This document shows positions 1,982 through 55,500 of a stretch of 59,661 bases of DNA, piece by piece (the stretch's first letter is position 1; every line of letters starts with the position of its first letter). The notes below the pieces were generated by a model that saw only the letters and a list, made by a program, of their open reading frames with translations, had not been told where the DNA came from and did not search any database. The stretch is taken from the IMG/VR virus record IMGVR_UViG_3300015264_000004, positions 1 to 59,661 of that record, one strand, 5' to 3'. The position numbers were made by a program, and so were the translations under genes. This DNA comes from a virus. Taxonomy: Duplodnaviria > Caudoviricetes.

Positions 1982-2031
1982 GTTATACCTGAGTTATCGG
2001 CCGCTGTCAAGATAACTTTACAACTATTTTT
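1982..2031 (-). promoter_or_regulatory. cassette repeat / sigma70 promoter (outlying copy)
   Basis: TGTAAAGTTATCTTGACA-GCGGCCGATAACTCAGG-TATAAC, 17-bp spacer. Confidence 0.8.
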
Positions 2032-2813: not shown

Positions 2814-2856
2814 ACTATACAGACATTATCGGAGCCTGTCAAGAAAACTTTACAAG
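2814..2856 (-). promoter_or_regulatory. cassette repeat / strong sigma70 promoter (outlying copy)
   Basis: TTGACA-GGCTCCGATAATGTCTG-TATAGT, 17-bp spacer. Confidence 0.85.
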
Positions 2857-2863
2857 AAAAATC

Positions 2864-2898
2864 AAAAAAAAATAGCGGGCCGCGTTTAACCCGCTATT
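2864..2898 (-). terminator. intrinsic terminator
   Basis: AATAGCGGGTT-loop-GGCCCGCTATT running into a T9 tract on the minus strand. Confidence 0.85.
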
Positions 2899-2910
2899 CC
2901 GATATGTTAA

Positions 2911-3070: not shown

Positions 3071-3484
3071 TTAGCCGGTCACTGTAGGGACAGGCGCATT
3101 TGGATCAACGGCCTTGACCGCGCTTGCGGTCTTGGCGTTTGCGTCTGACAGCGCCTGCGTGTCATCCTTGATTTGCTTCAGCGCAGCCAATAGGGCCGGG
3201 TCCGTATCTTCGGCGTCAATTGCGGCCTGAATTGCCGCAGCCTGCGCGCCTGCGTCATTGGTCAGGAAAGTATTCAGCGCGGTTGTCAGGCTGGCCGTGC
3301 TGTCAACCAAATCTTGAACGTTCTTACTTAATGCCATGATAATCCTTTCAACTTTCATGTCAATTGTCTCTAACTTGCGTAGTTCCCCAAACATCGGTTC
3401 CAGCATATCGAGACGGTTGTTAATACGTTTCAGGTAATCGAATATACCTAGAAACACTTCGGTTTGATTCAACTCAACAGTCAT
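3071..3484 (-). CDS. coiled-coil Ala-rich hypothetical protein (possible second in-frame start at 3337)
   Basis: Own promoter at 3523-3563. Internal GAAAGGA-N5-ATG. Confidence 0.7.
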   Translation of the reverse strand: MTVELNQTEVFLGIFDYLKRINNRLDMLEPMFGELRKLETIDMKVERIIMALSKNVQDLVDSTASLTTALNTFLTNDAGAQAAAIQAAIDAEDTDPALLAALKQIKDDTQALSDANAKTASAVKAVDPNAPVPTVTG

Positions 3485-3522
3485 ACTTTACACCTTTTCA
3501 GGATGTAGGTTTATCGAATCTA

Positions 3523-3563
3523 CCTATATCAGAGCCGGAAACCCTAGTCAAGTTAATTATACG
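3523..3563 (-). promoter_or_regulatory. sigma70 promoter with 18-bp box
   Basis: TTGACT-17 bp-TATAGG. Confidence 0.55.
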
Positions 3564-9778: not shown

Positions 9779-9869
9779 AATCTTTTTACCTCTTCAATTT
9801 GTCCTGTCCGGCCCCCGCATTGATACTATCGGTAAGGTATCACGCGAGTTTAGGGCTGTCAAGTTATTT

Positions 9870-12347: not shown

Positions 12348-12407
12348 CGAAAAGCCTGTCAGGGTAATCCTAACAGGCTTTCGATTGGGCGTCAAGTTAT
12401 CTTTACG
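12348..12407 (-). terminator. intrinsic terminator overlapped by a boxed promoter
   Basis: AAAGCCTGTTAGG-loop-CCTGACAGGCTTTT. TTGACG-17-TAGGAT has its -10 inside the stem. Confidence 0.65.
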
Positions 12408-26747: not shown

Positions 26748-29700
26748 TTACGCCTGACTGAGCCTTGTATTGATTGCTCCCGGGTTCTGTTCAATAAAAT
26801 TAAGCATTGCTTGCTTGCCGTCGCCGCTGGTAAGATAATTCGCCAAAAGATCATTAGGCAATACGTTAATAATCTTGGTATGCGTGACTTGCCCGCGTGA
26901 CGAAATAGGCCCGCCTGATATGCCGCCGCCTACGTTAACATTTCGTGACGGCGCTATGTTTGCATTGATTGAATGTAGCAATGCCAAGTTTTGACTTGTA
27001 GCCTGAGCGTTGACAATGTATTCCCCGTCAGATATTGGAACAAGGTTATTATCTATGCCACCTTGACCGCGAAACAGGCCGCCTGTCGCAAAACCACCGC
27101 CGCCGGCCGTACCAAGTAAGCCCGACAGAAAACCGCCCACACCACCAGCCCCTGAGCTACCGCCAAAGGCTGCCATAGCTATTCTTGTCAGAATGATCTT
27201 TTCCAGAATGTCAGTGAATACTTTGAACACCCCGGCCCCGAAGTCGAGGAAAGCTTGCTTTGCTGTATGCGCCCCATCTGTCAATTCACTTAAAGCATTG
27301 CCGATGACACTAACAAACCCCTGATTAAACGCCTTGCCTACATTATCCGTCTGGTTACTCAACTCCGATAATGATTGACGGGCCTTGTCAACGTATTGTT
27401 GCAGGTCTGTATTGCCCGTCGCCTTCGCAATCGCTTCAAGCTGATTTAACAGAACGTTGACAGCCGCGCTGTACTCTTTGATATGCTGCATGCGTAACTC
27501 ATGCGCATCTTTGTCCGACAGGGTGCCCTTGGTTACCTGTTCGGTTATCTTGGCCTCGTCAGTCTCGCGCAACGCGCCCAATGCTTCGATTTGTTTTTGC
27601 AGCGTGGCTACATTGCGCGCTACGCCCTCGACTTTCCAATTAGCCAAGCCTATTCTAACTTTTTCAATTGCGGCGACTAACGCAGGATCACCAATTTGTT
27701 TTGCGACGGCCGACATTCGATCTAACAAGGTAAACGCGGCCGCATTGGCCGTAGCCTCAAAATCAGATAATTCCTTATCCGCCTGGGTCCGGCTTTTGAG
27801 TCCCTGTAGTACCTGCGTATTTAACCGCTCTGATACGGCGCTCCGTTCGTCCTCTATAATCTTTTCCTGTTTTTGCAGGTCATTGTATTGCGCTTGAAGT
27901 TTTAACAGGCTAATAAGATTCTGCGTTTTCTTCAGGTCTGTATCGTTGCCCGTCTCTTTGGCCCGCGCCTGGGCCTGTGTTAATTGATCCTTGAATTGAT
28001 CGTCAATCTTATTTTCAGCGGCCTGTAGTGTGTGACCCTGTAACGTTAAAATCTCTTCGTCAACTTGTCTTAACGTCTTTAGGTAGGCTTCGGCCGCTTT
28101 CTGTGATTCAAAAGAAGCGTTTTTAGAGATTTGCCCGCGCTGATTTTCCAATTGCGCTATCTTCGCATTGGTATTTACTATTTCACCCTGTACCCGCAAC
28201 CGCGCCGGTTCGCCTTTTGTGGAATCGAGGCGCTTTTGCTCAATTTCAAGTAACTTTCGTTGTTGAGTTAATTGGACATCAATATCCGCGAGTTGCAGCG
28301 CTTCAAGATCGTGATAATACTTGGTTGCGGTAACTTTATTAAGGTCATAATGCTGTTTAAGATCGTTCTCTTGATCCTTCAATGCATCACGCTGCGCCTG
28401 TGTCGAGGCTGCCAATTGAGCCTTTTCTAAATCCTCTTGCGCCTTGGCTAATTGGTCGGCTTGACTCTTTTTGTTAGGGGCCGGCGAACCGCCCTTAAAA
28501 GTTGACGAGGGTTTTGGTTTCCCTGTCGGATTCGTGGCCGGTGTGCTAAACAATGCAAACATGGCCTCAAAACCTGTAGGCGGCGTTTGGAGTGAAGCCA
28601 TAGCCCTGTTCCATTGATGCGCAAAATCATCTACCGCAACACCAGCCTGTTTAGCCGCGCTAGTTAATGAATCTATTGCACCTTTCAGGTCCCCAGTAAA
28701 GAATTTGGTAACTCCGATACCTAACTCGACAATACCCTTGCCGACATCATACACAGCCTTGTAGAAGCCTATAACAACCTCTATATAAGCCTCTGTCGCA
28801 ATGCCTAATAGCTGGATCACCCCGATTAGACCAAATATCAGAGCCAGGATGTATTTAATGACTTCGCCGATGTCGGCCCCGACGTTGCTAACCTGACCGG
28901 GTGTATTCTGAATTAGATTGCTTAAATTAACTCCTAACGTAGTCAAGACAGGTAAGAGTTGCGAACCGACTTCATTCCTAACGCCTACAAGCGCGCCTTC
29001 AAGATCATCCATACTAACCTTGAAGTCATGGGCGGCCTTCGCATCGTTGTCACTGATAACAGCGCCTAAAGCCTCTGCCTTTTGTTTGAATTCTTCAAAA
29101 TTACCGTTTGCCTCTTGGATAATCGGTATCAGGTCAGCGCCGCTACGGCCTGCCAGTTTCATGGCCGCATCTACCTGTTGCGCTCCCGGCGGTAACTTAC
29201 TAATCGTCGTAAATAGCTGTTGCAACGCATTGTCGCTACTAGCCGCCGCTGACCTCGTATCAATGCCAAGTTGACCGAATGAATACGCAAGAGCCTTGTT
29301 ACCGGCTGCGGCCTCATTAGCATTTTTGATATATCTATCGAAAGCGGGTAAAGACTTGTCAATTGTTGACCCGGCCTCTTTGGCAGCGAAAGCCAAAGTA
29401 GAAACATTACTAGCCGATAATCCTGACTTTTGAGATAGTTCATAGATTTTATCCCCGGCACCCTCAAAAGATTTAGCCACGGCCACGCCAATACCGACAA
29501 TCAAACCTAAAACAACCAAAAGGCCGCCAGCCGCTACCGTCGCAGCCGTCATAGCTGTACCCGCAAGGGTTACCCCTGCGGCTTCTTCGGCTTCTGCGGC
29601 TGCGACTTCGCCTGACGTAACCGCTACCCTGCCCTGAGCTATTGCAAGAGCGTTTTCCGCGTCTACCAATGCTAAAGTCTGTTCTTCAAGGAAAAGCCTA

Positions 29701-42960: not shown

Positions 42961-43238
42961 GTTTCCTCGTCGGGCATCTTTTCCGCTAACTTCGGATTAA
43001 ACCGTGCCACAAGTTGTTTGCGTGTTATCTCGACAGCGCCAAGCCTTACAGCCACGGCCCGACGGCCTGCGGTCAGGTCATAATGTGGCAACCTGCCATT
43101 GTCAGGCTGAAACCATGCGCGCCGCATGCCAATACGGACAGCGAAGGCATGTAGCTCAGGGATAGTATCTGCGCATAGGTGACAATTAGGGCCTAGATTC
43201 CAGCCATTGTCTGTCAGTGGGTCAACGTAGACAGGCAT
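42951..43238 (-). CDS. DUF4031 family protein
   Basis: VYVD...CHL.AD...ELHAFA..IG..R.WFQ...HYDLT. Confidence 0.85.
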   Translation of the reverse strand: MPVYVDPLTDNGWNLGPNCHLCADTIPELHAFAVRIGMRRAWFQPDNGRLPHYDLTAGRRAVAVRLGAVEITRKQLVARFNPKLAEKMPDEETCT

Positions 43239-43549
43239 TAGTCGGCCGCCTTTTTCACGTGCCAAGTCTGCATGGCACGCATGACAGATTCGGCACGGCT
43301 GCGCTTGTCCTGTGTCAACGTTTCCTCGTTTTCGTCTAACCATAGTTTAATGATACGCGCTGCGCTTGCATCCTGGGCACGCAGGACAAAGACAGGCTCA
43401 TTATGGCGGGCCTTCGTGAATTCACTAGGTAGATGCTCTGTCAGGATACTATGCATGGCATCTAATGCCATGTCTAACTTTTCTGTCGGTACGACACCTA
43501 GCAACGCGTCTGCTATGTCCTCTTCGATTGTCCGTAACTTTGTACTCAT
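43238..43549 (-). CDS. hypothetical phage protein
   Basis: EPVFVLRAQD..A...W motif. Confidence 0.65.
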   Translation of the reverse strand: MSTKLRTIEEDIADALLGVVPTEKLDMALDAMHSILTEHLPSEFTKARHNEPVFVLRAQDASAARIIKLWLDENEETLTQDKRSRAESVMRAMQTWHVKKAAD

Positions 43550-44271
43550 GCTGACTCCTGCGGTCCCCAAAATTCATGCCACGCCGTCATGTTGCGCGCT
43601 GCGACGGTACGCCAATGCGTAAACGCCATGCTAACTTGATCCTTTGTTATTTGAAAACCGCAGGACGGACACATAAAGGCTACGTGTCGCCACTCGTCAA
43701 AGGCTGGTGGTTGTAGTTCCGAAGGGCTGCGCAGGCTGCCATTGCCATTCGCGCTGCATTGCAGACATTCACCGTCATGCATGGCCCGTATGACACGATG
43801 CAATACCCAAAACTTTTCGATACTCATGTCAACGGCATGTTGCATCGTCGCTGCGGTATAGTTAGGCGTCAATTGTTCGTGGCTGTCGGCAAGCCTGTCT
43901 GACCTGCCCAGGGCAGCGGCCGCTACATCATGTATCTGTGCCACGTGCAAAAGCATGGCATCGTAGTCAGTCGCCGATATTAAGGCCCGGCCTTCAGATG
44001 TCGCTACGTCTACGTTTTCCCTGTACAGTTCTGCCAAAGCCTCGACTATACAGGTCAACTCTGCCATGTGTTGCGTCTGGGCCTCTTCTATCTTTGACTG
44101 TACGGCCTTGCGGGACTCCCAAACCTCAATAATTTCGGCCCTGTCGCGCATAACAATATTACATGCATGTGCAGAATAGGAACTGCTGACCTCGACAGTA
44201 AATAAGATTTGATCCACCATTAAAACATAGTTGCGGCCATGCGACCCCTTAACGTCAATTGTCAGGCTCAT
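43546..44271 (-). CDS. hypothetical protein with C-terminal Zn ribbon
   Basis: CLQC...CPSC, coupled overlaps. Confidence 0.6.
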   Translation of the reverse strand: MSLTIDVKGSHGRNYVLMVDQILFTVEVSSSYSAHACNIVMRDRAEIIEVWESRKAVQSKIEEAQTQHMAELTCIVEALAELYRENVDVATSEGRALISATDYDAMLLHVAQIHDVAAAALGRSDRLADSHEQLTPNYTAATMQHAVDMSIEKFWVLHRVIRAMHDGECLQCSANGNGSLRSPSELQPPAFDEWRHVAFMCPSCGFQITKDQVSMAFTHWRTVAARNMTAWHEFWGPQESA

Positions 44272-44546
44272 GTTTGCTCCTGTTTATTCTCGACTTCAGA
44301 CTGTGACACATGGAAAAGAGAGTTGCCACTATTCAAGGCTCCAATAACACTACGCAAGCTTGTCTGATATGTGATTCTGACGCCAAGCTGCGGGCCGTAT
44401 TGGATCATAGCGGTATTGTTGTCAGGATTCGCAGAGTCCACTACCGCCATGTACATGGTCCCGTCTATCCGTGCCATTATGTTTGGCCGTTCGTTCGCAA
44501 TGCGGTCAGGAGTCCAGAAAAGTTTATCGTTTTGAGGCTTGCCCAC
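44268..44546 (-). CDS. hypothetical protein
   Basis: Operon packing. Confidence 0.55.
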   Translation of the reverse strand: MGKPQNDKLFWTPDRIANERPNIMARIDGTMYMAVVDSANPDNNTAMIQYGPQLGVRITYQTSLRSVIGALNSGNSLFHVSQSEVENKQEQT

Positions 44547-44552
44547 TTTAGG

Positions 44553-44861
44553 TTAACTTTCCTTTACCGCAGGATCATAGGCAACGCTGATAGAGTTGCC
44601 CGACTTCAGTACTATCATTCCTTCGGGCACGGCATCGTCACGAACAATACGACCGTATAGCCCCGCATGGGGCCGGCCCTGCGGCGCAGTTTGCCTACCG
44701 TCATCGGACCATGTAATATTGAGTGTCAGGCTGCCTGACCTGCCCTCTGTAAATAAAGTTTCATGGCTCCCATCATGCCTTACATCCCTGTGGCAAAGAT
44801 AAACCAGAGGGCCGTGGCTGTCATCTATCGTAATTTCAGCGTTACATAGTTTAGGTTTCAT
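44553..44861 (-). CDS. hypothetical protein
   Basis: Operon packing. Confidence 0.55.
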   Translation of the reverse strand: MKPKLCNAEITIDDSHGPLVYLCHRDVRHDGSHETLFTEGRSGSLTLNITWSDDGRQTAPQGRPHAGLYGRIVRDDAVPEGMIVLKSGNSISVAYDPAVKES

Positions 44862-45570
44862 TGGCCATAGCCTCTAATTCTGCGTCAGTCATTTTGGTAA
44901 CATCTACGTTACTACGAAACTTTTTATCGTCGAGGCCCGTTGCCAGCCTTGCAAATTTGGATTGGATTAATAGAAACCGTGTCATGTCTGCCAAGTCCCA
45001 TTCCGCAGGCTCCTGCCTGATAATGTTCTGTACAACAATACCGTCGCCGGTCAACCTTTCCTCTGTACGTTCGAACGTCTCGACAAAGAGGGGCCATGCT
45101 AACATTTCCTCGATTTGCCTGCGCAACTTAACAGAGACATCCCATTCCCATTCTTTTTGGGTGTCGGCACGTTTGGCCCACTTTGCAGCCTGCAAATCCT
45201 GGGCTTTCCTGCGGGCCTCGTCTTGCCTGCGTACCCAATAGGTGTCATAGGCACGTGACCGCTCTTGCCATTCGTATTTAGTGGCCAGGTCACGAATCTG
45301 TAGGTAGGATAGGCCTGTCTTTTTGGCAACTCTGGTATAGTTCCTACTGTTAGCAAGATAGCAGTACAAACGGAATAATCCGTAATGATAGGTAGACTCT
45401 TCGGGCCGTAGATGCCATATCTGTATTTCAACGTCGGCATCACATTCAAAGGGGCCGACAGGCAGGTCATCCTCTAATAACTGCAAAGCCTCGACAGGCT
45501 GCCCCTCTAACATGGTACTGTCAACGTCAGGCTCTATCCCTGTTAACCTTTCGGCCCTATGTAATGCCAT
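44851..45570 (-). CDS. putative terminase small subunit
   Basis: ES..Y..F..Y....R....VA...W.ER.RAYD HTH pattern, tail DVTKMTDAELEA. Confidence 0.7.
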   Translation of the reverse strand: MALHRAERLTGIEPDVDSTMLEGQPVEALQLLEDDLPVGPFECDADVEIQIWHLRPEESTYHYGLFRLYCYLANSRNYTRVAKKTGLSYLQIRDLATKYEWQERSRAYDTYWVRRQDEARRKAQDLQAAKWAKRADTQKEWEWDVSVKLRRQIEEMLAWPLFVETFERTEERLTGDGIVVQNIIRQEPAEWDLADMTRFLLIQSKFARLATGLDDKKFRSNVDVTKMTDAELEAMANET

Positions 45571-45899
45571 TAGATAGATACTCCTGTACTCCGCGGCCCC
45601 GACTGTGTAGGGCCGTGATCCTATCGAGGCAAGCCTCTACATTATCGAACCATGCGACATCGGCCCCGCAGGCTGCCCAGTACCGCAGTCTATTTGCCTG
45701 CCAGCCTGTAGGCCTTTCGCCTGGGCGTTTAATCTCATAAAAGCCTGCCAAACCGCAGCAAACGACCAATAAGTCTACATCCCTATTGATACCACTAGAC
45801 CATAGTTTTTTGATCCTAGTGTCGGGCAGGAGTGCAACTCTGTCCATGATGCTTTTCACAAGGTCAGATTCCAATATTGCTGTTTGCTTGTCCGGCATG
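45557..45899 (-). CDS. VRR-NUC (PD-(D/E)xK) nuclease
   Basis: E..L, DLL, EIKRPG..PT..Q. Start at the ATG after GAGG. Confidence 0.85.
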
Positions 45900-45931
45900 G
45901 AGCCTCGATTCCACAGACGCGCTGCGAATGA

Positions 45932-45973
45932 ATTATAAGTGATATACATGTCTGACGTAAAGAAAAAATTACA
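45932..45973 (-). promoter_or_regulatory. promoter of the packaging operon with 18-bp box
   Basis: TTTACG-18 bp-TATAAT. Confidence 0.65.
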
Positions 45974-46048
45974 AATCAAAAATTACTGTGTCTCGCGGAC
46001 ACCATGTGCAAATCTGTAACTTACTAGGTTTAGGTAGGCAGACGCAAG

Positions 46049-46086
46049 TTTGCACGGCCACAAACATGCGTCTGTGGCCGTGCAAA
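46049..46086. repeat. 14-bp perfect inverted repeat at the early/packaging boundary
   Basis: TTTGCACGGCCACA-N10-TGTGGCCGTGCAAA. Confidence 0.85.
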
Positions 46087-46121
46087 TCGGGCAGGAGTGT
46101 ATTACAAGTATGACCGAAGTT

Positions 46122-46718
46122 TCACTGACTCTGTGGGGCCGGACAGGCATGGAGCCTTCGGTTTTCCTGGGTCAGGCTTTTATTCTCTTCTGTGATCCTG
46201 CCTACCATGACCCTGAGCCTATCGACTAAAATACCGGACAGGCTTGCCTCTGGTGTATCGGCTAATAAATCATTCATGGTGTCGGCCGCCACTTGCCATA
46301 GGTTAGCGGTCAATTCGTGCCTCTGGATTGTTTGTACATGTGTCTCTATTTCGCTTCGGAGCCGTTCGCTAATATCGTCAGCGTGCCTGACCTGGGCTTG
46401 CAACTCTTGTGCGATGTCGCGCAGTGTCGAGGCTGTCTTTTCCTGTTCTACCATTCGACACAGAAAAGCGCTGACTACAGGATCACTGGCCAGCCAGCAT
46501 GCTATGGTTTCAAGCGTTGCTAATGTATCGGCTCCCTGGGCTTGTCTCTGCAATCCTGAGTCAGGATTGTCATTCATAAAGTTAACCATGTTAAGCGCAG
46601 CCTTGCCTATCCGTGGGCTTGCTATTGGCATACGCAAAGTTGCGCAATTATCGAGTGGTTTTGCTGGCATTTTTGTTTGGCTCCCTTGTAACGTTGAAAT
46701 TTCAGGGCCAAACGGCAA
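46122..46718 (-). CDS. coiled-coil hypothetical protein (start uncertain)
   Basis: Heptad-rich ORF. Confidence 0.55.
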   Translation of the reverse strand: MPFGPEISTLQGSQTKMPAKPLDNCATLRMPIASPRIGKAALNMVNFMNDNPDSGLQRQAQGADTLATLETIACWLASDPVVSAFLCRMVEQEKTASTLRDIAQELQAQVRHADDISERLRSEIETHVQTIQRHELTANLWQVAADTMNDLLADTPEASLSGILVDRLRVMVGRITEENKSLTQENRRLHACPAPQSQ

Positions 46719-46753
46719 CGCTTACGGCGCACCGCTGCCCATCTGTGGAATCC

Positions 46754-47302
46754 CTAACAGTCTCTGAAAATCGGTATTGCCTTGTGATCCTGACGGTTAG
46801 CGGCTGGCCGCCACGTTGAAAACATAATATTCTCGTCTCTGTCGAGTACATACACTTTATCTTGTTCGTGTCTGCGCTCTGCTATCTTTATAGCTATCGC
46901 AATGGCGTCAGGCTGGCTCAGGCTGACCGCTTTGTCGTAACGTGGCGTAAAGTTATAATCAGATGTCGGCACGAAGTCAGTAGCAACATAACCGCATTGT
47001 AGGGTATCCCACACTGTATATGTAGGCTCAGGCTGCGGCGACAAAAAACCAGAGCCGTACATCTGTGCCAATACCCTGCGCTTTGTTTCCTGGGCTATGG
47101 CATTAATCACGTTAAATTCGCCTGTCGTTTTAATTAACTCCTGTGCTCCCGACAGGGTTTGACCCTGTTTAACCAGTTCCTGACGGACAGGCCCCGCAAT
47201 CCTTTCGTATTCTGCCATAAACTTCTGATAATCGCCTGCGCAGGCTTGTATTGCTGCGTTGTAGTCACCAATACCCTGATTAATTCCTTTTATCGTTGTC
47301 AT
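46754..47302 (-). CDS. early-region hypothetical protein
   Basis: RBS ACAGGAGC before the ATG at 47302. Confidence 0.7.
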   Translation of the reverse strand: MTTIKGINQGIGDYNAAIQACAGDYQKFMAEYERIAGPVRQELVKQGQTLSGAQELIKTTGEFNVINAIAQETKRRVLAQMYGSGFLSPQPEPTYTVWDTLQCGYVATDFVPTSDYNFTPRYDKAVSLSQPDAIAIAIKIAERRHEQDKVYVLDRDENIMFSTWRPAANRQDHKAIPIFRDC

Positions 47303-47324
47303 GGGTTGCTCCTGTGTTCGTGAT

Positions 47325-47540
47325 CTAAAAATTGACATTCAAACCTGCGGCTGGATTAACCCAAATAGGCAAAGTGGGGAAATCCGTTTGATACTCCGTT
47401 GCTATCTCTACAGCCTCGTCTGACGTTCGTACTATGTCATACATTTTAACGGAGCCGTTTATAATCGCGGCCACTTGATACCCTGGCTGATTTCCTTGCG
47501 GTTTGCCGACTTCGATTCTGTTTCCTGGCATTGTATTCAT
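47325..47540 (-). CDS. early-region hypothetical protein
   Basis: RBS ACAGGAG, follows the repeat copy at 47576. Confidence 0.65.
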   Translation of the reverse strand: MNTMPGNRIEVGKPQGNQPGYQVAAIINGSVKMYDIVRTSDEAVEIATEYQTDFPTLPIWVNPAAGLNVNF

Positions 47541-47611
47541 TGTCGTAACTCCTGTGTGATCTAGGGTCACACATATTATCGTCGCGGGTCAAAATAACTT
47601 TACGGTTATTT

Positions 47612-47860
47612 TTAATTATTTTGCGGATAGAATTCTATTGTGATCCTTTGCGCATTACGGCCCTGAGCCTTGCCTAGTGTTTCGTCAGGCTTTCGATTGT
47701 GATCTATCGTCAAATAGAGGCTCCCGTCGCCATTATCTTCTAACCTGGCAGAATCATTCTCGACATCAATAGGCAGGCAATAGCCTTGCGTCAAGGCCCA
47801 TTGCAGAGGGGCCTCTGTGGCCCCGTGTTTCGTGTTGCCGATATAAATGTAATAGGTCAT
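47612..47860 (-). CDS. early-region hypothetical protein
   Basis: RBS GGGAGC. Stop abuts a repeat. Confidence 0.65.
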   Translation of the reverse strand: MTYYIYIGNTKHGATEAPLQWALTQGYCLPIDVENDSARLEDNGDGSLYLTIDHNRKPDETLGKAQGRNAQRITIEFYPQNN

Positions 47861-47872
47861 GCTTGGCTCCCG

Positions 47873-48034
47873 TTAGAAACTTTCAAGTTTCTGTCGTAGT
47901 TCCTCTAACAAATCGTATTCGGCTGCCTGAAACGTGGTTTCAATTTGCGCATGGATCACAGGATAGAGGGCCGTTTGCCTTTCTGTGATAATCGCAAGCG
48001 CAGCCTGTATTCTTTTTTCTGCGTCTGTGTTCAC
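47873..48034 (-). CDS. early-region hypothetical protein
   Basis: GTG start after ACAGGAGC. Confidence 0.6.
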   Translation of the reverse strand: MNTDAEKRIQAALAIITERQTALYPVIHAQIETTFQAAEYDLLEELRQKLESF

Positions 48035-48059
48035 TGTATTTGCTCCTGTGCAGCCTGCC

Positions 48060-48320
48060 CTATGCGCTTTTTTCGAATTTATCAAGGGCCTCGATTATTC
48101 GGCTGTCAATTTTGATTGCGGTTTGTGAATACTCGTCAGCGGATTCATGATCCTGTACCGCAAGCGCTTTCATGCCTCTGGTTCGATTCAAAGCATAGCG
48201 CGATAGCTTGCCAACTATTTCCGCCATGTCGTTTGCTTCTGCGGCCGTGCCTCGACAATCAAAGGCATGTAACAATTCGTTTATCTTCAGTGTGAAATTC
48301 TCTTTTTCCTGCGTTGTCAT
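48060..48320 (-). CDS. early-region hypothetical protein
   Basis: ATG after AAGGGAGC. The TTG start in the ORF track is the -35 box. Confidence 0.7.
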   Translation of the reverse strand: MTTQEKENFTLKINELLHAFDCRGTAAEANDMAEIVGKLSRYALNRTRGMKALAVQDHESADEYSQTAIKIDSRIIEALDKFEKSA

Positions 48321-48384
48321 GTTCGTGGCTCCCTTGCTCCGATAATTCCTTACACTGGTATTATCGGAGCCTGTCAAAATAACT

Positions 48385-48942
48385 TTACAGTGTCGCCATT
48401 AATTTTTTGAATTTTGCTTCTGACGTAAACTTAAAGTTAACGTAAATACGGGCAGGGTACTGATTAAACAGGAGGCCCTTGCACGAACAATTGATTATCA
48501 TATCCTGTTCAATCCTGACTGTCAGGCCCTTTACCGTACCGCTCAGGTCAAACCGACAATGGTTATAATCTCTAACCGTGACATCGGACAGCATACCAAT
48601 CTTACTGTTTATCTTCGCTAACCAGTTATCAATAGAATCCTGAGCGAATTCAACGGCCGCAGCCTCGACTTTGGCGTCAACTAACCGATAACCTTTCGTG
48701 GCCCGAATAGCATCAATACCGGTCAGGGTTTCGTCTACAACATAGGTTTCTGTCAGTGGGCGGATAGTGTTAGCGAAAAATGAATAGTCGGGGCTATTGT
48801 ATACGCTCTTGAATCCGTTGTTTGCCTCTGTCATCGTTACACCGTAGTCAGCAACCAAACGGGCCATGCCTGCGTTAACTCTATTGATAAACATTTCCTT
48901 AAATAAGGGCCTTCGTGATTCCAATGCCTCTGTAATCGTCAT
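48385..48942 (-). CDS. early-region hypothetical protein
   Basis: ATG after ACAGGAGC. TAA stop lies inside the repeat. Confidence 0.75.
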   Translation of the reverse strand: MTITEALESRRPLFKEMFINRVNAGMARLVADYGVTMTEANNGFKSVYNSPDYSFFANTIRPLTETYVVDETLTGIDAIRATKGYRLVDAKVEAAAVEFAQDSIDNWLAKINSKIGMLSDVTVRDYNHCRFDLSGTVKGLTVRIEQDMIINCSCKGLLFNQYPARIYVNFKFTSEAKFKKLMATL

Positions 48943-49044
48943 GTCCGTTGCTCCTGTTTCTGTAATCTCATAACCAATCATAGTAAGGTTATCGGAGCCT
49001 GTCAAAATAACTTTACACTTATTTTTAGGATCACAAAAATAATT

Positions 49045-49908
49045 TTATAAGAGCGGTACGCCATCGGCGCGCATGACCTGAGCAACCTTTACCAAATACG
49101 GCCCCAATACGCAGGGCCCTAATGTTCTATGCAATTCCTCGTCAGATGTATCCTTTGCACCGTCGGCACGAAGTCGGCCCCGTATAGCCTCTAAAAATTG
49201 CATACCATTAGCGCGCAAGCTATCGACTTCGCCACGGTTCAATAATTCGTTTTGTGTGACTGCAATCATATACTGCGCTTGGTTAACTTCTGCCCTGGCA
49301 TTGTCGGTCAGTCTTTCGACATAACCATAGGAGTCACTTATCACGCGATTATACGACCGAATAAGGCTGCCAAGATAGGCCGTCGGCATTGCAATCATAT
49401 CCTTTATTTGCTCTGCGTATGCCTGTAATCCTGCGTCAATAGGACTCAAAACAGAATTGCAAGGCTCAGGATCACATGCCGCTACTTTTCCAGTTTCTAC
49501 GGCTGCGGCCGTTGCTTTGTTAATCAGGATTACAAAGGCAGGAGTTAGCACGGCCTGACCTGCCATTAATGCGCGCAATTCTTTATCGTCGCCGCTGCGC
49601 ATCATGTAGTCTGCCCATTGGTTAGTTTTTGCAATTGCCTCTTTTTTGTTCGTGCCTGACGTGCCGATTTTCATACCCGTTGCAACTTCGGTTATGACCC
49701 AATAAAAATATTTAGGATTCGGGCAGGGCCGTTTGGCAATGCTCAAAAATAAGAACGGCGCGCTATTAAGAGTTACGGGCGACGATATAGCCGTAATATC
49801 GACATATCCGTCACGGCCCTGATTACTGTATACCTTTTTTGTGCGCTGATAATAGCCCAGGGATTCATAAAACGCTTTTTGTATCGGTGTCATTATCGCG
49901 TATAACAT
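49045..49908 (-). CDS. early-region hypothetical protein
   Basis: Promoter repeat plus ACAGGAGC RBS. Confidence 0.75.
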   Translation of the reverse strand: MLYAIMTPIQKAFYESLGYYQRTKKVYSNQGRDGYVDITAISSPVTLNSAPFLFLSIAKRPCPNPKYFYWVITEVATGMKIGTSGTNKKEAIAKTNQWADYMMRSGDDKELRALMAGQAVLTPAFVILINKATAAAVETGKVAACDPEPCNSVLSPIDAGLQAYAEQIKDMIAMPTAYLGSLIRSYNRVISDSYGYVERLTDNARAEVNQAQYMIAVTQNELLNRGEVDSLRANGMQFLEAIRGRLRADGAKDTSDEELHRTLGPCVLGPYLVKVAQVMRADGVPLL

Positions 49909-49989
49909 GTTTGTTGCTCCTGTTCAATCAAGATAATTCAAGCTTACATAAGTTATCGGAGCCTGTAAAGATAACTTTACAATTATTTT

Positions 49990-50259
49990 TCAGACTTCAA
50001 AGCTTGCCCAAAAAGAGGGAGCAAACAAACCTGCGTTGTAATCAGAGGATGTAATTTTTTCAATTATCGTGGTGTCAAACCAGTCATTAGGCAGAAGTGT
50101 CAAAACACATGTTCCCTCGCATTGCTCTGCCCGCCTACCCGCTAACTCTGCGCTGACCTGCCATGTCAGGTCAGCCTTATAGTTTGCCTGTATAATTGTT
50201 ATCGGTGTACCGAATCTGTCGGCCGTTTGCTGCGCTTTGTCTATTTTTTCCGGTGTCAT
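49990..50259 (-). CDS. early-region hypothetical protein
   Basis: Leader nearly identical to that of 52127..52414. Confidence 0.7.
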   Translation of the reverse strand: MTPEKIDKAQQTADRFGTPITIIQANYKADLTWQVSAELAGRRAEQCEGTCVLTLLPNDWFDTTIIEKITSSDYNAGLFAPSFWASFEV

Positions 50260-50339
50260 GTTGTTTGCTCCTGTCGTATTAAGATAATTCAAGCTTACAT
50301 AAGCTATCGGAGCCTGTAAAGATAACTTTACAGTTATTT

Positions 50340-50951
50340 TTAATAATCATCGCGTCTATCGGCTAATAGGTGACTAAAGCGCTTGCGTGCCTCTGGTGTA
50401 TCAAACGAATAGACCCGTAAGCGCTGCGTGGTAATGGCCCTGACCTGTCGGGAATCCCGCCACAAACTAGCCTGATAATCGTCGGATAGTTTACGCCACG
50501 AAGGCCGGCCCCACTTATCAGAGGGAATAGTTTGCGGTACTCGCATGTTTATCCTGGCATGTAAAGCTTTCCATGCGCCATGTTCGAATTGGCTCCTGTC
50601 TAAATATACGCCATAGGTAGGATTAATTTGCCTATAGCCTGACGCAAACGCTTTGCGGGCCGTCTTAATGTAGACAACATACTTTCCTTTGTCGGGCAGG
50701 CTTTGAATTGACTGCGGCGCGCAACGCGCTAATGACCTGACCCTGAGTTGACGGTTATTGCCAAGTCGGTAGATCATAGGTTGCACGGTGTAGGCTTTCG
50801 CGTTATTCTCTGCGCAATCATCGGCCGTCAGAATAAACTTTGCATCGTTGCGGCCCCGTACAAGTTGCGAAACAGAATAGATCATACCGTCATCACCAAT
50901 AACTTTGTCGGTAATGCTCAGGTCAGCAATGCGGATTAATGCAATATTCAT
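50340..50951 (-). CDS. early-region hypothetical protein
   Basis: RBS AAGGGAGC. Stop abuts a repeat. Confidence 0.7.
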   Translation of the reverse strand: MNIALIRIADLSITDKVIGDDGMIYSVSQLVRGRNDAKFILTADDCAENNAKAYTVQPMIYRLGNNRQLRVRSLARCAPQSIQSLPDKGKYVVYIKTARKAFASGYRQINPTYGVYLDRSQFEHGAWKALHARINMRVPQTIPSDKWGRPSWRKLSDDYQASLWRDSRQVRAITTQRLRVYSFDTPEARKRFSHLLADRRDDY

Positions 50952-50953
50952 GG

Positions 50954-51304
50954 TTATGCTCCCTTTTCCTGAAACTGGAACACTCTGTCATGTGGGGCCT
51001 CTAATAATCCTGTCATGCGCAGGATCACTACAGGGTACCCTTTACCGTTGCATGCCTTACACTCGACAGGAAACATGCGCTTGCGCTTTGTATACTTTTT
51101 GCCATGGCCCTGGCATACCGGACAGGCTTGTTTGATTTGTATTTTGCTGACTTTCATGCCAGCCTCCAAAGTCAGATAATAGTTGACCGACTTTTCCAGT
51201 TCCTTTCGGGCCTCTGAAACAGTCGCCGCGCCGCTATGGATTGCAGATTCGTGCCCTGTGATCCTGCCAAAGTCAACTTCTACCGAATAACGCCATAATT
51301 CCAT
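50954..51304 (-). CDS. early protein with DnaJ-type CxxCxGxG zinc motifs
   Basis: CPVCQGHG and CKACNGKG. Confidence 0.7.
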   Translation of the reverse strand: MELWRYSVEVDFGRITGHESAIHSGAATVSEARKELEKSVNYYLTLEAGMKVSKIQIKQACPVCQGHGKKYTKRKRMFPVECKACNGKGYPVVILRMTGLLEAPHDRVFQFQEKGA

Positions 51305-51380
51305 GTCTGTTCACTCCTGCGCTTCAAAATTCCTTACACTGGTATTATCGGAGCCTGTAAAGATAACTTTACAGTTATTA

Positions 51381-51773
51381 TCAGTCAGATGCAAAATAAT
51401 TTGCTTTAGCGCGCTGCGCATGTAAACAAACGGGGCCACAGACTCTATGCTGCAATTTCCCTGAGCAATGCCATGCGCCATGATACACTCCTGCCAATAC
51501 AAGTAGGCTTGCCTCTGTTATCATGTGATCCTGGGCCTCTGGATTCCACAGACGCGCTGCGGCGCGCAATTCTCTTATTAGTTCCCACAATAGGAAATGC
51601 GCAGCCTGTTTAATTGCCATGTGTTGCGTCAGTCTATCGTCAAAACGGATAATGCGGCCCTCTGTCAACTCGACAAGTGTAGCAACTCTGACCTGACGGC
51701 CCGTGCCCGTCTTAATATTGTAAGGCCGTATGTCTTTTATTCCGGCCTGAGCCTTAAAGTCTATTAATCCCAT
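51381..51773 (-). CDS. early-region hypothetical protein
   Basis: RBS AGGAGC. Stop abuts a repeat. Confidence 0.6.
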   Translation of the reverse strand: MGLIDFKAQAGIKDIRPYNIKTGTGRQVRVATLVELTEGRIIRFDDRLTQHMAIKQAAHFLLWELIRELRAAARLWNPEAQDHMITEASLLVLAGVYHGAWHCSGKLQHRVCGPVCLHAQRAKANYFASD

Positions 51774-51790
51774 GTCAGGCTCCTATTCTT

Positions 51791-52096
51791 TTAGAGTTTA
51801 GCAGATTGCAACGGTTTGCCTAGTGATCTAGCCAAGCCGCAAGTAACATGGTCAGCAGGCGACATGCCGCAGGCACGAACACACACATGGCCCCGTTTGT
51901 CCGTACGAATCCCTGCGTATGTTGCTATGGATTTGCTAATGTCGAGAATACGGCCCTGAAAAACAATAAAGAACGAACAGAATTTTGTCATGTCCGTAAA
52001 ATGGTGTACCACGCAGTAAATAGTATCGTCATCGGCCAAAATGCTACGCAGATAACTTTCTGAATTCGTTTTCATTGCTGGTGTAATTTGGTTCAT
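51791..52096 (-). CDS. early-region hypothetical protein
   Basis: RBS GAAAGGA after a partial repeat. Confidence 0.7.
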   Translation of the reverse strand: MNQITPAMKTNSESYLRSILADDDTIYCVVHHFTDMTKFCSFFIVFQGRILDISKSIATYAGIRTDKRGHVCVRACGMSPADHVTCGLARSLGKPLQSAKL

Positions 52097-52126
52097 GTTC
52101 GTTTCCTTTCGTCGGTCAAAATAAGT

Positions 52127-52414
52127 TTACAGGGTTTCCTCTGGTACTACATAGGCCTCTTTTGGGTCAGGGTCACCATAAGCGGATTCTATGCGCTTGC
52201 TACACTCGTCGCAATACAGGTCATTATCTTCATAATTGACATCGGCGGCCACGATGTCAGATGTTTTACAAACGCTTGCCTCTTCTGTGTTCGCGCAGTC
52301 AGGGCAGAGTACAGAACTTCTACTGTCGAGGTAAAAAATCGGGTATCCGCCCGGCCATGCGAAACTCTGTAATTTGCCATTATCATTCCTTGGTAACTCT
52401 GGTTTGCCTGTCAT
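52127..52414 (-). CDS. early-region zinc-binding hypothetical protein
   Basis: AWPGGYP.FY...LCPDC...LYCDEC..IESAYG. Stop lies in the partial repeat. Confidence 0.75.
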   Translation of the reverse strand: MTGKPELPRNDNGKLQSFAWPGGYPIFYLDSRSSVLCPDCANTEEASVCKTSDIVAADVNYEDNDLYCDECSKRIESAYGDPDPKEAYVVPEETL

Positions 52415-52482
52415 GTTGTTTGCTCCTGTCGTATTAAGATAATTCAAGCTTACATAAGTTATCGGAGCCTGTCAAAATAACT

Positions 52483-52776
52483 TTACAGGTATTTTAATGA
52501 CAGGTCAGAACTATTCCATGTTAATCCCGCGTCGTGCCTTTCTTTGGCATGTTTAATGCATTCGCGCAGAGTAGCATGGCCCCTTTCGTTATAATGGCAC
52601 AGACTTGATAGGTAATGATACGGCCTGCCATCGGTCCCGCCGTATCGACTTATTCTGATACTGTCATTTTTATATCTCAAGTATCGGTCATAATGATGAC
52701 TAATTGTTATGCCGTATGGGGCATGGCCTTGATAATACTGTTTTGTTAGATTCCAGTCTGTTCTATGTTTAAGCAT
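52483..52776 (-). CDS. early-region hypothetical protein
   Basis: The last codons and TAA are supplied by the repeat. Confidence 0.6.
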   Translation of the reverse strand: MLKHRTDWNLTKQYYQGHAPYGITISHHYDRYLRYKNDSIRISRYGGTDGRPYHYLSSLCHYNERGHATLRECIKHAKERHDAGLTWNSSDLSLKYL

Positions 52777-52869
52777 TATCCTATTCCTTTGTAGTCTCAA
52801 TGAATTACTTATATCTGGGTTATCGGAGCCTGTAAAGATAACTTTACAGTTATTTTTGACTTTCGTTAA

Positions 52870-53601
52870 TTATTTTTCGTCTCTACGTTGTATTAATCCT
52901 GGGCTATAGGTTGCATGCCGGCCACAGTATAATCGGGCAGTACAGAGGCCCTCGTTTGTCAGACCCGAAGTTGCAAGGCAGTACCCATGCGATATATTTT
53001 CGTTTTCGTTTGCGGGCCTGCGCTTCCACTCCGTTTCATATGCCCTGAGCCTGACCGCTAATTCCTGACGATAGGCAAGGGCCGCAGGATCACATGCAAA
53101 GTTATCATCTGCGCATGGTTCGTATGACCTTGAGGGCAGAGCAAACGACATGACCCAAACGATTAATTCATTAGCCGACATACTGACCTGCCTTGCCTTT
53201 CGTTCGCCGGCCTTGCGTATGAAAAAGGTTTTGGTTGTTCGGGGCCGCGTCTGCAATGCCTCTATTGTAAATGCCTGACCATGTTCGTCGGCAACTTCTA
53301 CGGCCTGACCTGCCCGAAGCCTGCCAATAATTTCCTTGGCGTCAACTTCTGTCATACGCTCAGTATACACTGTCGAGGCTCCCAGGTTAGCTATTCTTAT
53401 CTGTAGTTCCTCTGAAACTAGCTTGCGGTTTGCCTCGACTTGTACAGTAATAATGATTTGGTCGTTTACATGCATGCCTGCCCAGGGCCTTGCAATTATT
53501 TTGTCGAGTACATGAGGATACATGAGTAAGTCGAAAGTGTATGACGGGGCTAATAGTTCCCTGCGTTCGACTTCTGTTAGTCTATCCCAAATAGTTTCCA
53601 T
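52870..53601 (-). CDS. early-region hypothetical protein (first gene of the array)
   Basis: Promoter repeat at 53646, RBS ACAGGAGC. Confidence 0.7.
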   Translation of the reverse strand: METIWDRLTEVERRELLAPSYTFDLLMYPHVLDKIIARPWAGMHVNDQIIITVQVEANRKLVSEELQIRIANLGASTVYTERMTEVDAKEIIGRLRAGQAVEVADEHGQAFTIEALQTRPRTTKTFFIRKAGERKARQVSMSANELIVWVMSFALPSRSYEPCADDNFACDPAALAYRQELAVRLRAYETEWKRRPANENENISHGYCLATSGLTNEGLCTARLYCGRHATYSPGLIQRRDEK

Positions 53602-53705
53602 GATATGCTCCTGTTAATAAATTCCTATACCTAGTTGTATTACTGCTATCGGAGCCTGTCAAGATAACTTTACAGGTATTTTTCACTGCCCGCAAGTAAA
53701 CAATC

Positions 53706-53822
53706 GTGACAATTATTACGATTTGTATAATTATCACGATTATTATAGCTATTACAATTGTGACGATTGTTACAATTGTTATGTTTGTTATATCTATTAC
53801 GATTTGGACATTTGTTACAATT
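53706..53822. repeat. 13 degenerate 9-bp tandem repeats (RTTACRATT)
   Basis: GTGACAATT ATTACGATT TGTATAATT ATCACGATT ... GTTACAATT in unbroken register. Confidence 0.85.
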
Positions 53823-53876: not shown

Positions 53877-53936
53877 CATGGCCCGTTTTGTGTACGAAAG
53901 TACGAACATGGCGCGGTTTGTGTACGAAAGTATGCT
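53877..53936. repeat. two 30-bp tandem repeats
   Basis: CATGGCCCGTTTTGTGTACGAAAGTACGAA / CATGGCGCGGTTTGTGTACGAAAGTATGCT. Confidence 0.85.
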
Positions 53937-53943: not shown

Positions 53944-54912
53944 CTATAACGCCAAGGTAATTACTCTGCCGTCGCATAATTTCCTTTGATTGTGTGCCAT
54001 ACCCTGCGGTCGAGGATGCGCGCAATTCTTATAGCCGCATCCGCAGGCCGTACAGTCAGGATCAAAGATTTTTTCCGGGCTGTCAGTTCCGGCCTCGTCT
54101 AACTCAGGCCCGTTTTGTGTACGGTCATCGGAATTAACGGTCGCTATGTACGATACAAGCGCATCCTTCAGCCCGCTAACACCTTTAGGTTCTTCTTCGG
54201 TCTGTACAGGGGTTTCATCAAGCCAATGTTCTCTACGCCAATCTGATAAGCGCATCCTGAGTTGTAATTCACTCTCAGGTGATAAATGTAGCTCATGCAC
54301 ACCCCGAAGATAAAATGCAAGCCAGCGCTCCCGGAAACGTTCGTCAGGATGCATGTAGCCAAGTATCTCAGTCGCATGCAGTAACTTCATAATGAAATGA
54401 TGTGGAATGTTATCAAGATTCTTATAGAAGTCGTCAACTTCGGTTTCCCAGGCAAGATTGCCCGCGAATGATCGTAATGACATGAAATCGTCAACGTGTT
54501 CGCCGTACTCTATCATCCTGCCAAACCGGGCAGCAACTAACACCGTTGCACGATAGGCCCGTTGTACATTTTTGCAGGGATGATATTTTTGCGCGCCGTC
54601 GGGGCCGCGAGTTGCCAGCAATAGGACAGACTGTTGTTGCACGGTCAGGTATCGACACCAGACAGGCTGTACCGATACTATTGACGGTAAATTCTGTATT
54701 GGTAGGTCATCCCTGCCTTTAGTCTTTGTTGCACGTACTCCGTTAGTGCATACATCCGCAGGCCGCCAAATGTACGTACAATAATCGCAGCGGTGGCTAC
54801 GATGCGGTCTGTTAATCCAATTCTGTTCCGGCTTGTCTTTGTCAATGTGTTGCCTGAAACATAACGGACAAAACAGGATCATATCAATAACTAACTCAGT
54901 GGCTGGTGTCAT
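53944..54912 (-). CDS. hypothetical phage protein (Zn motif plus helical domain)
   Basis: CPLC..QHID...PHRSHRC..C and RGPDG...HHF..H..EILGY.HP, RBS GAAAGGA. Confidence 0.75.
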   Translation of the reverse strand: MTPATELVIDMILFCPLCFRQHIDKDKPEQNWINRPHRSHRCDYCTYIWRPADVCTNGVRATKTKGRDDLPIQNLPSIVSVQPVWCRYLTVQQQSVLLLATRGPDGAQKYHPCKNVQRAYRATVLVAARFGRMIEYGEHVDDFMSLRSFAGNLAWETEVDDFYKNLDNIPHHFIMKLLHATEILGYMHPDERFRERWLAFYLRGVHELHLSPESELQLRMRLSDWRREHWLDETPVQTEEEPKGVSGLKDALVSYIATVNSDDRTQNGPELDEAGTDSPEKIFDPDCTACGCGYKNCAHPRPQGMAHNQRKLCDGRVITLAL

Positions 54913-54931: not shown

Positions 54932-55207
54932 TTAGTCGGGCAGAAGTGTCCAAATCTTTTCACGTAAAAGGGTGATGCCGAAACATAGTAAAGTTATCTT
55001 TATCCATACCCTTTCGATTTCGTAGTATTCATCCTCGATTTCAACCCTGAAGCCTACACTCCAATTGTACAGGTCTAAAGATTTGCCCAGTTTCCATGTA
55101 CACATTTCCAGCGTGTTAGGATTGCTCAGGCCCCCGGCTTCTACGACTTCGGTCAGGGCGGGCCATATAACATCTGTGCGAGTTTCCGCGCTTCGTTTGA
55201 TAATCAT
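54932..55207 (-). CDS. hypothetical protein
   Basis: ATGA coupling. Confidence 0.55.
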   Translation of the reverse strand: MIIKRSAETRTDVIWPALTEVVEAGGLSNPNTLEMCTWKLGKSLDLYNWSVGFRVEIEDEYYEIERVWIKITLLCFGITLLREKIWTLLPD

Positions 55208-55500
55208 TCCGTGTCTTTCTTGTCGAGGCGTTCAATAGCGGTTTGGGCCTTACGGTTGTATTTTTCCTCTGGTGTTTCGTCGGCCTGTGTCGGCGGTTGC
55301 CATGACCTGTCATACCTACGGCTGTATCGTTTCTCCGGTGTCTCTTCGCCGTATGTACCTATCTCTCTGCGCAGGATGTCAGATAATACTTTCGACATAC
55401 TGCCGTCGCGTGTAGCCTTGGCGCGTTTGGCTAGTTCGTCTTTCATGTACTGCGGGATGTACGCGCCCACAAATACACCCTTGCGTTTTGGTTTAGTCAT
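55204..55500 (-). CDS. ribbon-helix-helix DNA-binding protein
   Basis: VFVGAYIP...DEL...A......MSKVLSDIL strand-helix-helix pattern. Confidence 0.65.
   Translation of the reverse strand: MTKPKRKGVFVGAYIPQYMKDELAKRAKATRDGSMSKVLSDILRREIGTYGEETPEKRYSRRYDRSWQPPTQADETPEEKYNRKAQTAIERLDKKDTE

Follow-up and report, generated by a model that had tools for sequence, protein, structure and literature searches.

The window analysed here is the whole of the IMG/VR virus record IMGVR_UViG_3300015264_000004 (59,661 bases), from an uncultivated soil phage. All of its genes are on the minus strand, and between 47.5 and 53.7 kb it carries an array of near-identical, promoter-like repeats standing before small genes. 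The 77-nt repeat at its ends is a k-mer-sized assembly overlap, and the map is therefore circular. In the direction of transcription, a terminator-like hairpin closes a long upstream gene block just before one outlying copy of the repeat. It is followed by small genes and by a nucleotide-metabolism block that spans the sequence ends (thymidylate synthase, a MazG-like protein, a deoxyribosyltransferase and an exonuclease), then by an AT-rich stretch with 9-bp repeats and by the promoter array. Genes for an HNH nuclease, TerS, TerL, portal, protease and tail proteins lie 3' of the array, and then the replication genes: a topoisomerase, two helicases, a primase-polymerase and two methyltransferases. 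Coordinates are given in Table 1.

The 27-nt core of the repeat, GTAAAGTTATYTTKACAGGCTCCGATA, is present exactly at eight minus-strand sites within the array. With one diverged copy and one relic these are all the copies found at 47.5-53.7 kb, essentially the nine full copies and one partial copy counted in an earlier, sequence-only reading of this DNA. The 37-nt consensus of that reading has seven sites with 3 or fewer mismatches, against none in 100 shuffles. It placed the whole family at 47576..53682, which is right for the array but misses two copies, at 2827-2853 (1 mismatch) and 1995-2021 (3 mismatches). The 12 copies are all on the gene strand, with none on the other strand and none expected by chance. 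The family is one contiguous arc of approximately 15 kb on the circular map, not just the 6-kb array, and offers 10 or 11 usable copies between 2853 and 47603, counted across the sequence ends; of these, nine are in tandem in the accessory slot described below. The relic has no room to act as a promoter because the next ATG is only 24 nt after its -35 box. It is left out of the 11-copy alignments, which take in the other array copies and the two extra ones. Copies are named below by the highest coordinate of the core.

The layout is the same in each copy, with an A-rich tract, GTAAAG at about -46, a -35 box (TTGACA or TTTACA) and, 17 nt further on, a -10 box. Identity in the 11-copy alignment is near-complete from about -57 (AAAAATAAC) to -19 (GATAA) and is then lost abruptly. 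The core is preceded by AAAATAA in eight of the 11 copies and by ATAATAA in a ninth, and CGATAA (-24 to -19) is kept in all 11, even where GGCT is altered. The stop codons of the preceding genes are next to the A-rich tract, or inside the repeat in the case of copy 48388, and a ribosome-binding site and ATG come 22-28 nt after the predicted start. The shared block stops at -19, halfway through the spacer, which leaves every unit with a -10 box, leader, ribosome-binding site and gene of its own.

In sequence, the copies resemble promoters of the sigma-70 type. The -10 boxes listed in the earlier reading (TACAAC, TATAAG, TAAGCT three times and TATGAT, all 17 nt after the -35 box) are right, and the remaining boxes of the array are TGTAAG, in two copies, and TGACCC, in one. 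The T at -12 is invariant in the 11 copies, always at the same 17-nt distance, and A is found at -11 in eight. Since these 11 copies have eight different downstream sequences, each with the T (8 of 8), the invariant T is not carried by duplication. It is the best evidence in the sequence for a -10 box read at this distance.

The signature GTAAA-N5-Y-TTKAC has 16 gene-strand sites in the window against 0.09 expected. The repeat family accounts for 12 of these, and the others are at 774, 9858, 10447 and 12391. In the complete genome of a relative, G001 (55,270 bases; TerL 54% identical), the signature has three exact gene-strand sites and none on the other strand, with near-matches such as that at 27165. 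The promoter at 27165 is in the position of copy 2853, 5' of the homologue of a 101-aa gene, and retains TTGTTAAGTTTACTTGACA without the spacer motif GGCTCCGATAA. GTAAAG is therefore part of the ordinary promoter design of this phage family. The five promoters of the same type that lie outside the repeat family in the window, like all those of G001, have spacers unrelated to GGCTCCGATAA, so the RNA polymerase would not need this spacer. The earlier reading had said as much of the conserved spacer.

Two of the outlying signature sites have features of their own. At 727-789 on the minus strand, a family-type promoter (GTAAATATAACTTGACT ... TAGCCT) runs directly into a hairpin with a 12-bp stem, and this combination may be a small RNA or an attenuator. 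The site at 10447-10462, inside a helicase gene, is a perfect palindrome, GTAAAGCAAACTTTAC, and matches the signature on both strands.

The 14 genes that follow the array copies, here called cargo genes, were said in the earlier reading to form one- to three-gene units of unrelated proteins, and this is so. The eight array units have, in order, 1, 1, 3, 2, 1, 1, 1 and 3 genes. No similarity was found between cargo proteins (best pair E = 0.18), the best pair in the whole set of 26 proteins being a cargo protein and the flanking 322-aa protein (E = 0.003). In the libraries searched, 11 of the 14 had no match at E <= 1e-4 and none had a match above a curated cut-off. The 95-aa protein matches the zinc-ribbon family phrog_18452 (E = 1.2e-13) and also phrog_18238 (E = 1.3e-7). 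The 116-aa protein (50954-51304) has a DnaJ-type CxxCxGxG zinc finger (E = 3.6e-5, short of the Pfam curated cut-off), and Q-like antiterminator PHROGs match it weakly (E = 6e-4 and 2e-3). A Hint-like match in the 203-aa protein is likewise below the curated cut-off, and the 243-aa protein has weak matches only, to its C-terminal part.

The cargo genes also stand apart from the rest of the genome in composition and in their relatives. Their G+C content is 0.462, compared to 0.500 for the core genes (p = 2e-5). The nearest relatives of the phage, with TerL 88-94% identical, are known as contigs; one of these, at 54,989 bases, falls 4.7 kb short of the length of this genome. At 90% identity, none of the 14 cargo proteins shares a cluster with any protein from outside the two assemblies of this genome itself. 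By comparison, three of the six non-array proteins tested (TerL, a 340-aa head protein and the topoisomerase) have partners of at least 90% identity on the 54,989-base relative, and TerS, ThyX and a 182-aa protein have none there. For the 287-aa cargo protein just one homologue was found (75% identity), on a contig of 964 bases, with none on the 54,989-base relative and no usable match in an Atlas search.

The genome of G001 is collinear with the window throughout. The slot that holds the array is bounded in both by homologues of the 322-aa gene and of the 182-aa gene (46670-46122). It measures 7.3 kb in the window. In G001 it is approximately 1.75 kb and has no copy of the repeat, only six short reading frames, closely packed and unrelated to those of the window. 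The slot is hypervariable. Given this slot, the lack of close relatives of the cargo and its lower G+C content, the array appears to be an accessory, fast-turning part of the genome. Judged by the type of promoter and by position, its genes are probably early ones. A second variable spot adjoins a family promoter, where window positions 3071-4375 are opposite G001 27165-27223; the DNA methyltransferase gene (3557-4375) and a 137-aa gene that lie there, 5' of copy 2853, have no match in G001.

Comparison of the copies with each other shows how far the similarity extends. It stops 5 nt or fewer after GATA in 50 of the 55 pairs; one pair extends 12 nt after it and four extend 18-51 nt. The similarity runs 51 nt further between copies 52486 and 50331, through ATG+6, 24 nt further between each of these and copy 49980, and 18 nt further between copies 51372 and 48388. 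All of these long-similarity pairs precede unrelated genes. Copies 49980 and 50331 are 89% identical across an 87-nt repeat. Between copies 52486 and 50331 there are five differences in the first 40 nt but none over the 50 nt that follow, and at several pairs of variable sites all four possible combinations occur. Together, the sharp edges, extended pairs, mosaics and four-way combinations indicate that sequence has passed from copy to copy, with breakpoints that lie within the block or next to it. A family of repeats that recombine would be expected to behave in this way. The earlier reading's statement that the genome has no integrase is borne out by a six-frame search of the whole genome with PF00589 and PF00239, which had no integrase or resolvase match and in which the controls were positive.

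The only sequencing run listed as containing the stretch is a soil metagenome, probably the source sample, and there is no RNA run among those listed. The contigs of the source run break at every repeat. Two contig joints were considered as alternative junctions and rejected, since their sides, 28 and 43 nt long, fall inside repeats and they are cross-matches between repeats.

Table 1. Promoter repeats, cargo genes and other features of the window. Copies are numbered in the direction of transcription; types A and B are leaders or -10 regions common to more than one copy.
Feature	Position	Strand	Remarks
Copy 1, first of array	53634..53683	-	core 53647-53673; unit 53646-53682; CTTGACA; -10 TACAAC at 53634-53639
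Copy 2	52808..52857	-	core 52821-52847; exact consensus match; TTTACA; perfect 8-bp dyad; -10 TATAAG
Copy 3	52447..52496	-	core 52460-52486; TTGACA; -10 TAAGCT; type-A leader identical to that of copy 5 through ATG+6
Relic copy	52109..52130	-	GTAAACTTATTTTGAC; overlaps stop codon of gene 52414-52127
Copy 4	51333..51382	-	core 51346-51372; TTTACA; type-B -10 region TGTAAG, common to copy 8
Copy 5	50292..50341	-	core 50305-50331; TTTACA; -10 TAAGCT; type-A leader
Copy 6	49941..49990	-	core 49954-49980; TTTACA; -10 TAAGCT; type-A leader
Copy 7	48977..49026	-	core 48990-49016; TTGACA-17-TATGAT; 11/12 consensus positions
Copy 8	48349..48388	-	core 48362-48388; upstream stop codon inside repeat (CTGTAA); type-B -10 region TGTAAG
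Copy 9, diverged	47564..47613	-	full length, ends 47603; spacer CCGCGACGATAA; no good -10 box (TGACCC)
Extra copy 2853	2814..2853	-	TTGACA-17-TATAGT (11/12); directly after strong terminator
Extra copy 2021	1982..2031	-	spacer GCGGCCGATAA; -10 TATAAC
Cargo genes, 14	47325..53601	-	small, mutually unrelated, mostly without family matches
Cargo gene 1	53601-52870	-	
Cargo gene 2	52776-52483	-	
Cargo gene 3	52414-52127	-	
Cargo gene 4	52096-51791	-	
Cargo gene 5	51773-51381	-	
Cargo gene 6	51304-50954	-	
Cargo gene 7	50951-50340	-	
Cargo gene 8	50259-49990	-	
Cargo gene 9	49908-49045	-	
Cargo gene 10	48942-48385	-	
Cargo gene 11	48320-48060	-	
Cargo gene 12	48034-47873	-	
Cargo gene 13	47860-47612	-	
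Cargo gene 14	47540-47325	-	
Second-class promoter (same type, outside the family)	12355..12406	-	upstream signature GTAAAGATAAC-TTGACG; unrelated spacer
Second-class promoter	9858-9873		unrelated spacer
Second-class promoter	774-789		unrelated spacer
Second-class promoter	near 15547		unrelated spacer
Second-class promoter	near 12843		unrelated spacer
Terminator-like hairpin, intrinsic	2869..2900	-	13 pairs and T run; strong
AT-rich array of 9-bp periodic units	53700..53816	.	ACAATTGTN / ACGATTGTN, direct and inverted; directly 5' of copy 1

Some of the copies could form a stem-loop, CUGUAAAG-UUAU-CUUUACAG. Its 8-bp AU-rich stem is perfect in three of the four TTTACA copies (52847, 51372 and 50331) and is one pair shorter, at 7 bp, in the fourth (49980). 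It is the predicted fold in those three of the 11 copies, at -9.2 to -10 kcal/mol; copy 49980 has a different predicted fold, at -10.2 kcal/mol, and six of the 11 fold no better than shuffles. The dyad largely arises because TTTAC is the complement of GTAAA. The T run is on the antisense strand only, so the stem-loop is not a sense-strand terminator, and with a weak fold and no T run on the sense strand it was rejected in this role. The most stable local fold, at -27.8 kcal/mol, is a different one, in the leader of copy 48388, where an inverted copy of the spacer motif of that repeat (CTCCGATAAT ... ATTATCGGAG, 48335-48371) has 10-bp arms spanning the -10 box.

On balance, the repeats are probably copies of one extended promoter for the host sigma-70-type RNA polymerase, kept uniform by recombination and placed before fast-turning accessory genes. 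The copies share the block from about -57 to -19, and what follows it, from the -10 box to the gene, is particular to each unit. The extra identity, including GGCTCCGATAA, would reflect common descent, maintained through recombination or gene conversion. A homology of 38-40 nt could then serve as a portable joint at which units are gained, lost and reordered, as proposed for the promoter-early stem-loop (PeSL) elements of T4-type phages. The shuffling of repeat-bounded units in the manner of PeSL elements is plausible, and it is the best available reading of the mosaics and of a boundary that splits the promoter. Indirect support for it comes from the hypervariable slot, from the lack of close relatives of the cargo and from the mosaics. 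The architecture is real and cleanly defined, with the mechanism put forward as a proposal, and the earlier interpretation of the region as a modular platform whose early genes, taken there as candidates for an anti-defence or host-takeover role, are gained, lost and shuffled by recombination between the repeats is partly supported.

Several results weigh against this explanation. Only two of the 11 copies pass a strict sigma-70 scan (with matches at 49005 and 2842, both at 11 of 12 positions), several -10 boxes are without T at -7, and G is found at -11 in copies 51372, 48388 and 47603. The mosaic of copies 52486 and 50331 has a probability of (40/90)^5, about 0.02, from few sites and in a comparison picked once the data were already known. 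A search for an ERF or RecT recombinase found none, and there are no terminators between the units or shielding the downstream packaging genes. Since they lack terminators, the units are less self-contained than the word cassettes suggests. The similarity to G001 is lost within the 322-aa gene and regained approximately 1.2 kb past the last repeat, so that the limits are not at the repeats as the earlier reading would have had the breakpoints between relatives. This is weak evidence at such a distance, as the small proteins may have diverged beyond detection at 54% TerL identity. No other genome with the motif was found in the collections searched.

The main rival is that the block from -57 to -19 is an operator, through which a phage or host DNA-binding protein would switch this class of promoters off or on together and so put a set of early genes under timed control, its identity being due to selection for binding and not to recombination. 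It would account for the invariance of the block at positions that RNA polymerase does not read, CGATAA in all 11 copies included, and for the restriction of the spacer motif to one contiguous set of promoters when others of the same type are without it. There are also short symmetric elements in the block, CTGTAAAG-N4-CTTTACAG and GTTATC-N12-GATAAC. However, of the four TTTACA copies only the three that keep CTGTAAAG have the first of these in perfect form (52847, 51372 and 50331; 7 bp in 49980), and it stems from the complementarity of TTTAC to GTAAA, which is found throughout the family. The sites of a known operator family usually differ from each other at more positions than the 0 of 27 seen here. 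No DNA-binding protein was identified, and an operator function is considered doubtful, if the most serious of the alternatives. One candidate regulator, the 98-aa protein (55204-55500), was tried as a ribbon-helix-helix protein and rejected, having no Pfam or PDB sequence match and a low-confidence model (pLDDT 65). LexA, CRP and DnaA boxes and the P2 Ogr site (TGT-N12-ACA) were weighed and set aside, their spacing or invariance being unfit.

It is also conceivable, though a good deal less so, that the 38-40-nt block is a dedicated site for cassette exchange, an integron-like joint without an integrase that splits the promoter in two. The site would give the upstream tract, -35 box and half of the spacer, and an incoming unit would bring the -10 box, leader and gene. 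Entry would be by homologous exchange or through a cut by the HNH or the GIY-YIG-like nuclease, and the unit would be expressed at once. The exact spacer would be kept as a crossover substrate common to a co-infecting phage population.

Another explanation is that the repeats are strong promoters of an ordinary kind, which local duplication has multiplied and selection for strength alone keeps alike; they would have no role in the gain or loss of genes, and the slot would vary for other reasons. Lytic phages often have early promoters in tandem, the limits of similarity to G001 fall elsewhere than at the repeats, and the source-sample contigs, which break at every repeat, offer no alternative junctions. 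But selection for strength alone is unlikely because the -10 box varies while half of the spacer is invariant, where the opposite would be predicted, and other promoters of a working type in the genome use other spacers. Identical leaders before unrelated genes, and the mosaics, also need transfer between copies. This explanation is therefore thought improbable. Very unlikely is a role for GGCUCC as an anti-Shine-Dalgarno sequence that pairs with the GGAGC of the next gene in read-through RNA, so that translation would be mainly from the own-promoter transcript, on the model of the early/late transcript switch of T4 lysozyme: the minimum-energy fold of read-through RNA has this pairing with the ribosome-binding site in five of the eight array units (probability 0.94-1.0, and lower, at 0.18-0.80, in own-promoter RNA), but the difference from other GGAG-type genes is not significant (mean 0.81 vs 0.62, one-sided p = 0.067), copy 2853 has GGCTCC yet an AAGGA-type binding site, copies 2021 and 47603 have lost GGCTCC without a compensating change, and the invariant part is CGATAA, not GGCTCC.

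The extended, recombining promoter that is favoured here has its closest parallel in the PeSL. According to Arbiol et al. 2010 (PMC2839356) and Comeau et al. 2014 (PMC4122927), a PeSL consists of a strong sigma-70-like promoter, preceded by an AT-rich tract in which the gene before it has its stop codon, and of a stem-loop at which transcription from upstream is terminated; a Shine-Dalgarno sequence and start codon follow. PeSL are concentrated in hyperplastic regions, next to genes that lack relatives. Their crossovers map to the interval from the -10 box to the ATG or to the loop, and mini-circles have been observed. Set against these descriptions, the window has a predicted sigma-70-like promoter in each element, an AT-rich tract with the upstream stop codon, a ribosome-binding site and a start codon. 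The copies cluster in a variable region beside genes without relatives (the slot compared with G001; 14 of 14 cargo proteins), some share sequence as far as the -10 box or ATG, as at the mini-circle crossovers, and in neither case is a dedicated recombinase involved.

The differences are also clear. A terminating or attenuating stem-loop was not found here and the units are uninsulated. The phage is not T4-type, being 59.7 kb with a TerL at most 27% identical to those of cultured phages; a megablast search of the INPHARED cultured phages gave no match to it. The identity between copies is much tighter than in the PeSL as described (27 of 27) and ends at -19. The PeSL analogy of the sequence-only reading thus stands for the promoter, AT-rich tract and variable setting and fails for the terminator and the T4-type host genome. 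The array is PeSL-like in most respects as the sources used describe them, and not a member of the PeSL family.

Other systems have fewer points in common with the array. Many early promoters of T4 have an extended consensus, with conserved positions outside the -35 and -10 boxes and an A-rich part upstream, but in the window a subset of promoters shares an exact half of the spacer that its sister promoters lack. The host-takeover module of SPO1 is driven by several host-polymerase promoters. It has approximately two dozen small early genes without known relatives (PMC10531801). It resembles the array as a cluster of small genes of this kind; however, that module is in the terminal redundancy, the end repeat here is only an assembly overlap, and there is no shared sequence. 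With integrons the array shares tandem one-gene units split by a repeated site, a repeat-plus-gene logic that would allow circular intermediates. Unlike integrons, it has no integrase, the repeat is not an attC-type folded site, and in place of promoterless cassettes with a common promoter every unit has a -35 and a -10 box. Lambdoid morons, also discussed in PMC2839356, are accessory genes that bring their own promoter and terminator, without a conserved flanking repeat. The cargo genes are like them in having their own promoters, and differ in the conserved repeat and in the lack of sense-strand terminators between units.

A literature search for repeated promoter elements flanking accessory genes outside T4-type phages, which did not cover the whole literature, gave only the PeSL papers and papers citing them. 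The window offers a clean example of a promoter-repeat array in an unrelated, uncultivated 60-kb soil phage, with a repeat tighter than the PeSL, no terminator part, and a boundary that falls within the promoter and divides it. Should the repeats indeed mediate the gain and loss of units, the renewal of accessory genes in lytic phages through homology carried by promoters would be more general, and the array would mark where to look for host-takeover or counter-defence genes.

The motif itself was sought elsewhere. A 24-nt pattern of it is absent from IMG/VR, and a 27-nt degenerate pattern is absent from JGI metagenome contigs and from genome-collection contigs. A dyad-only pattern has 13 single matches in IMG/VR, which is chance level, with no contig having several. 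Searches with TerS, with P0136 (IMG/VR and metagenomes) and with P0008 and P0016 gave no relatives. That with TerL gave a 24% match and L009, a 4.8-kb fragment that ends just downstream of the array (window 47393). More distant relatives came from a TerL alignment, with 80 loci at no more than 46% identity, of which the eight with approximately 9-10 kb upstream of TerL were examined, and no dispersed promoter-like repeat was found in these eight. Two of the eight, with TerL at 42%, L021 (3915-5443) and L035 (1033-6856), have clustered, short-period, G+C-rich repeats 5' of TerL, with periods of approximately 10 and 14 nt, unlike the promoter repeat.

The AT-rich array of 9-bp units before copy 1 could be an iteron origin or a regulator-binding array. 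Its two-unit pattern has seven matches, against 0.11 expected, and is confined to 53700-53816. Close to it, in the gap just 3' of the 322-aa gene, are two 26-nt direct repeats (53877-53932; 92% identical, 30 nt apart), with a weaker third copy inside that gene (54104-54129).

There are two free-standing nuclease-like genes. The HNH endonuclease gene (45557-45979; phrog_93, E = 1e-9) adjoins that of TerS, and within the promoter-repeat arc there is a weak GIY-YIG match at 1469-1735 (21.5 bits against a cut-off of 22.6). No RNA family in Rfam matches the window. The genes of the window have two styles of ribosome-binding site: GGAG(C/T), often CAGGAGCAA, is found in most genes (17) from 53.6 to 43.2 kb (43238-53601), TerS included, and a GAAAGGA-type site in most of the others.

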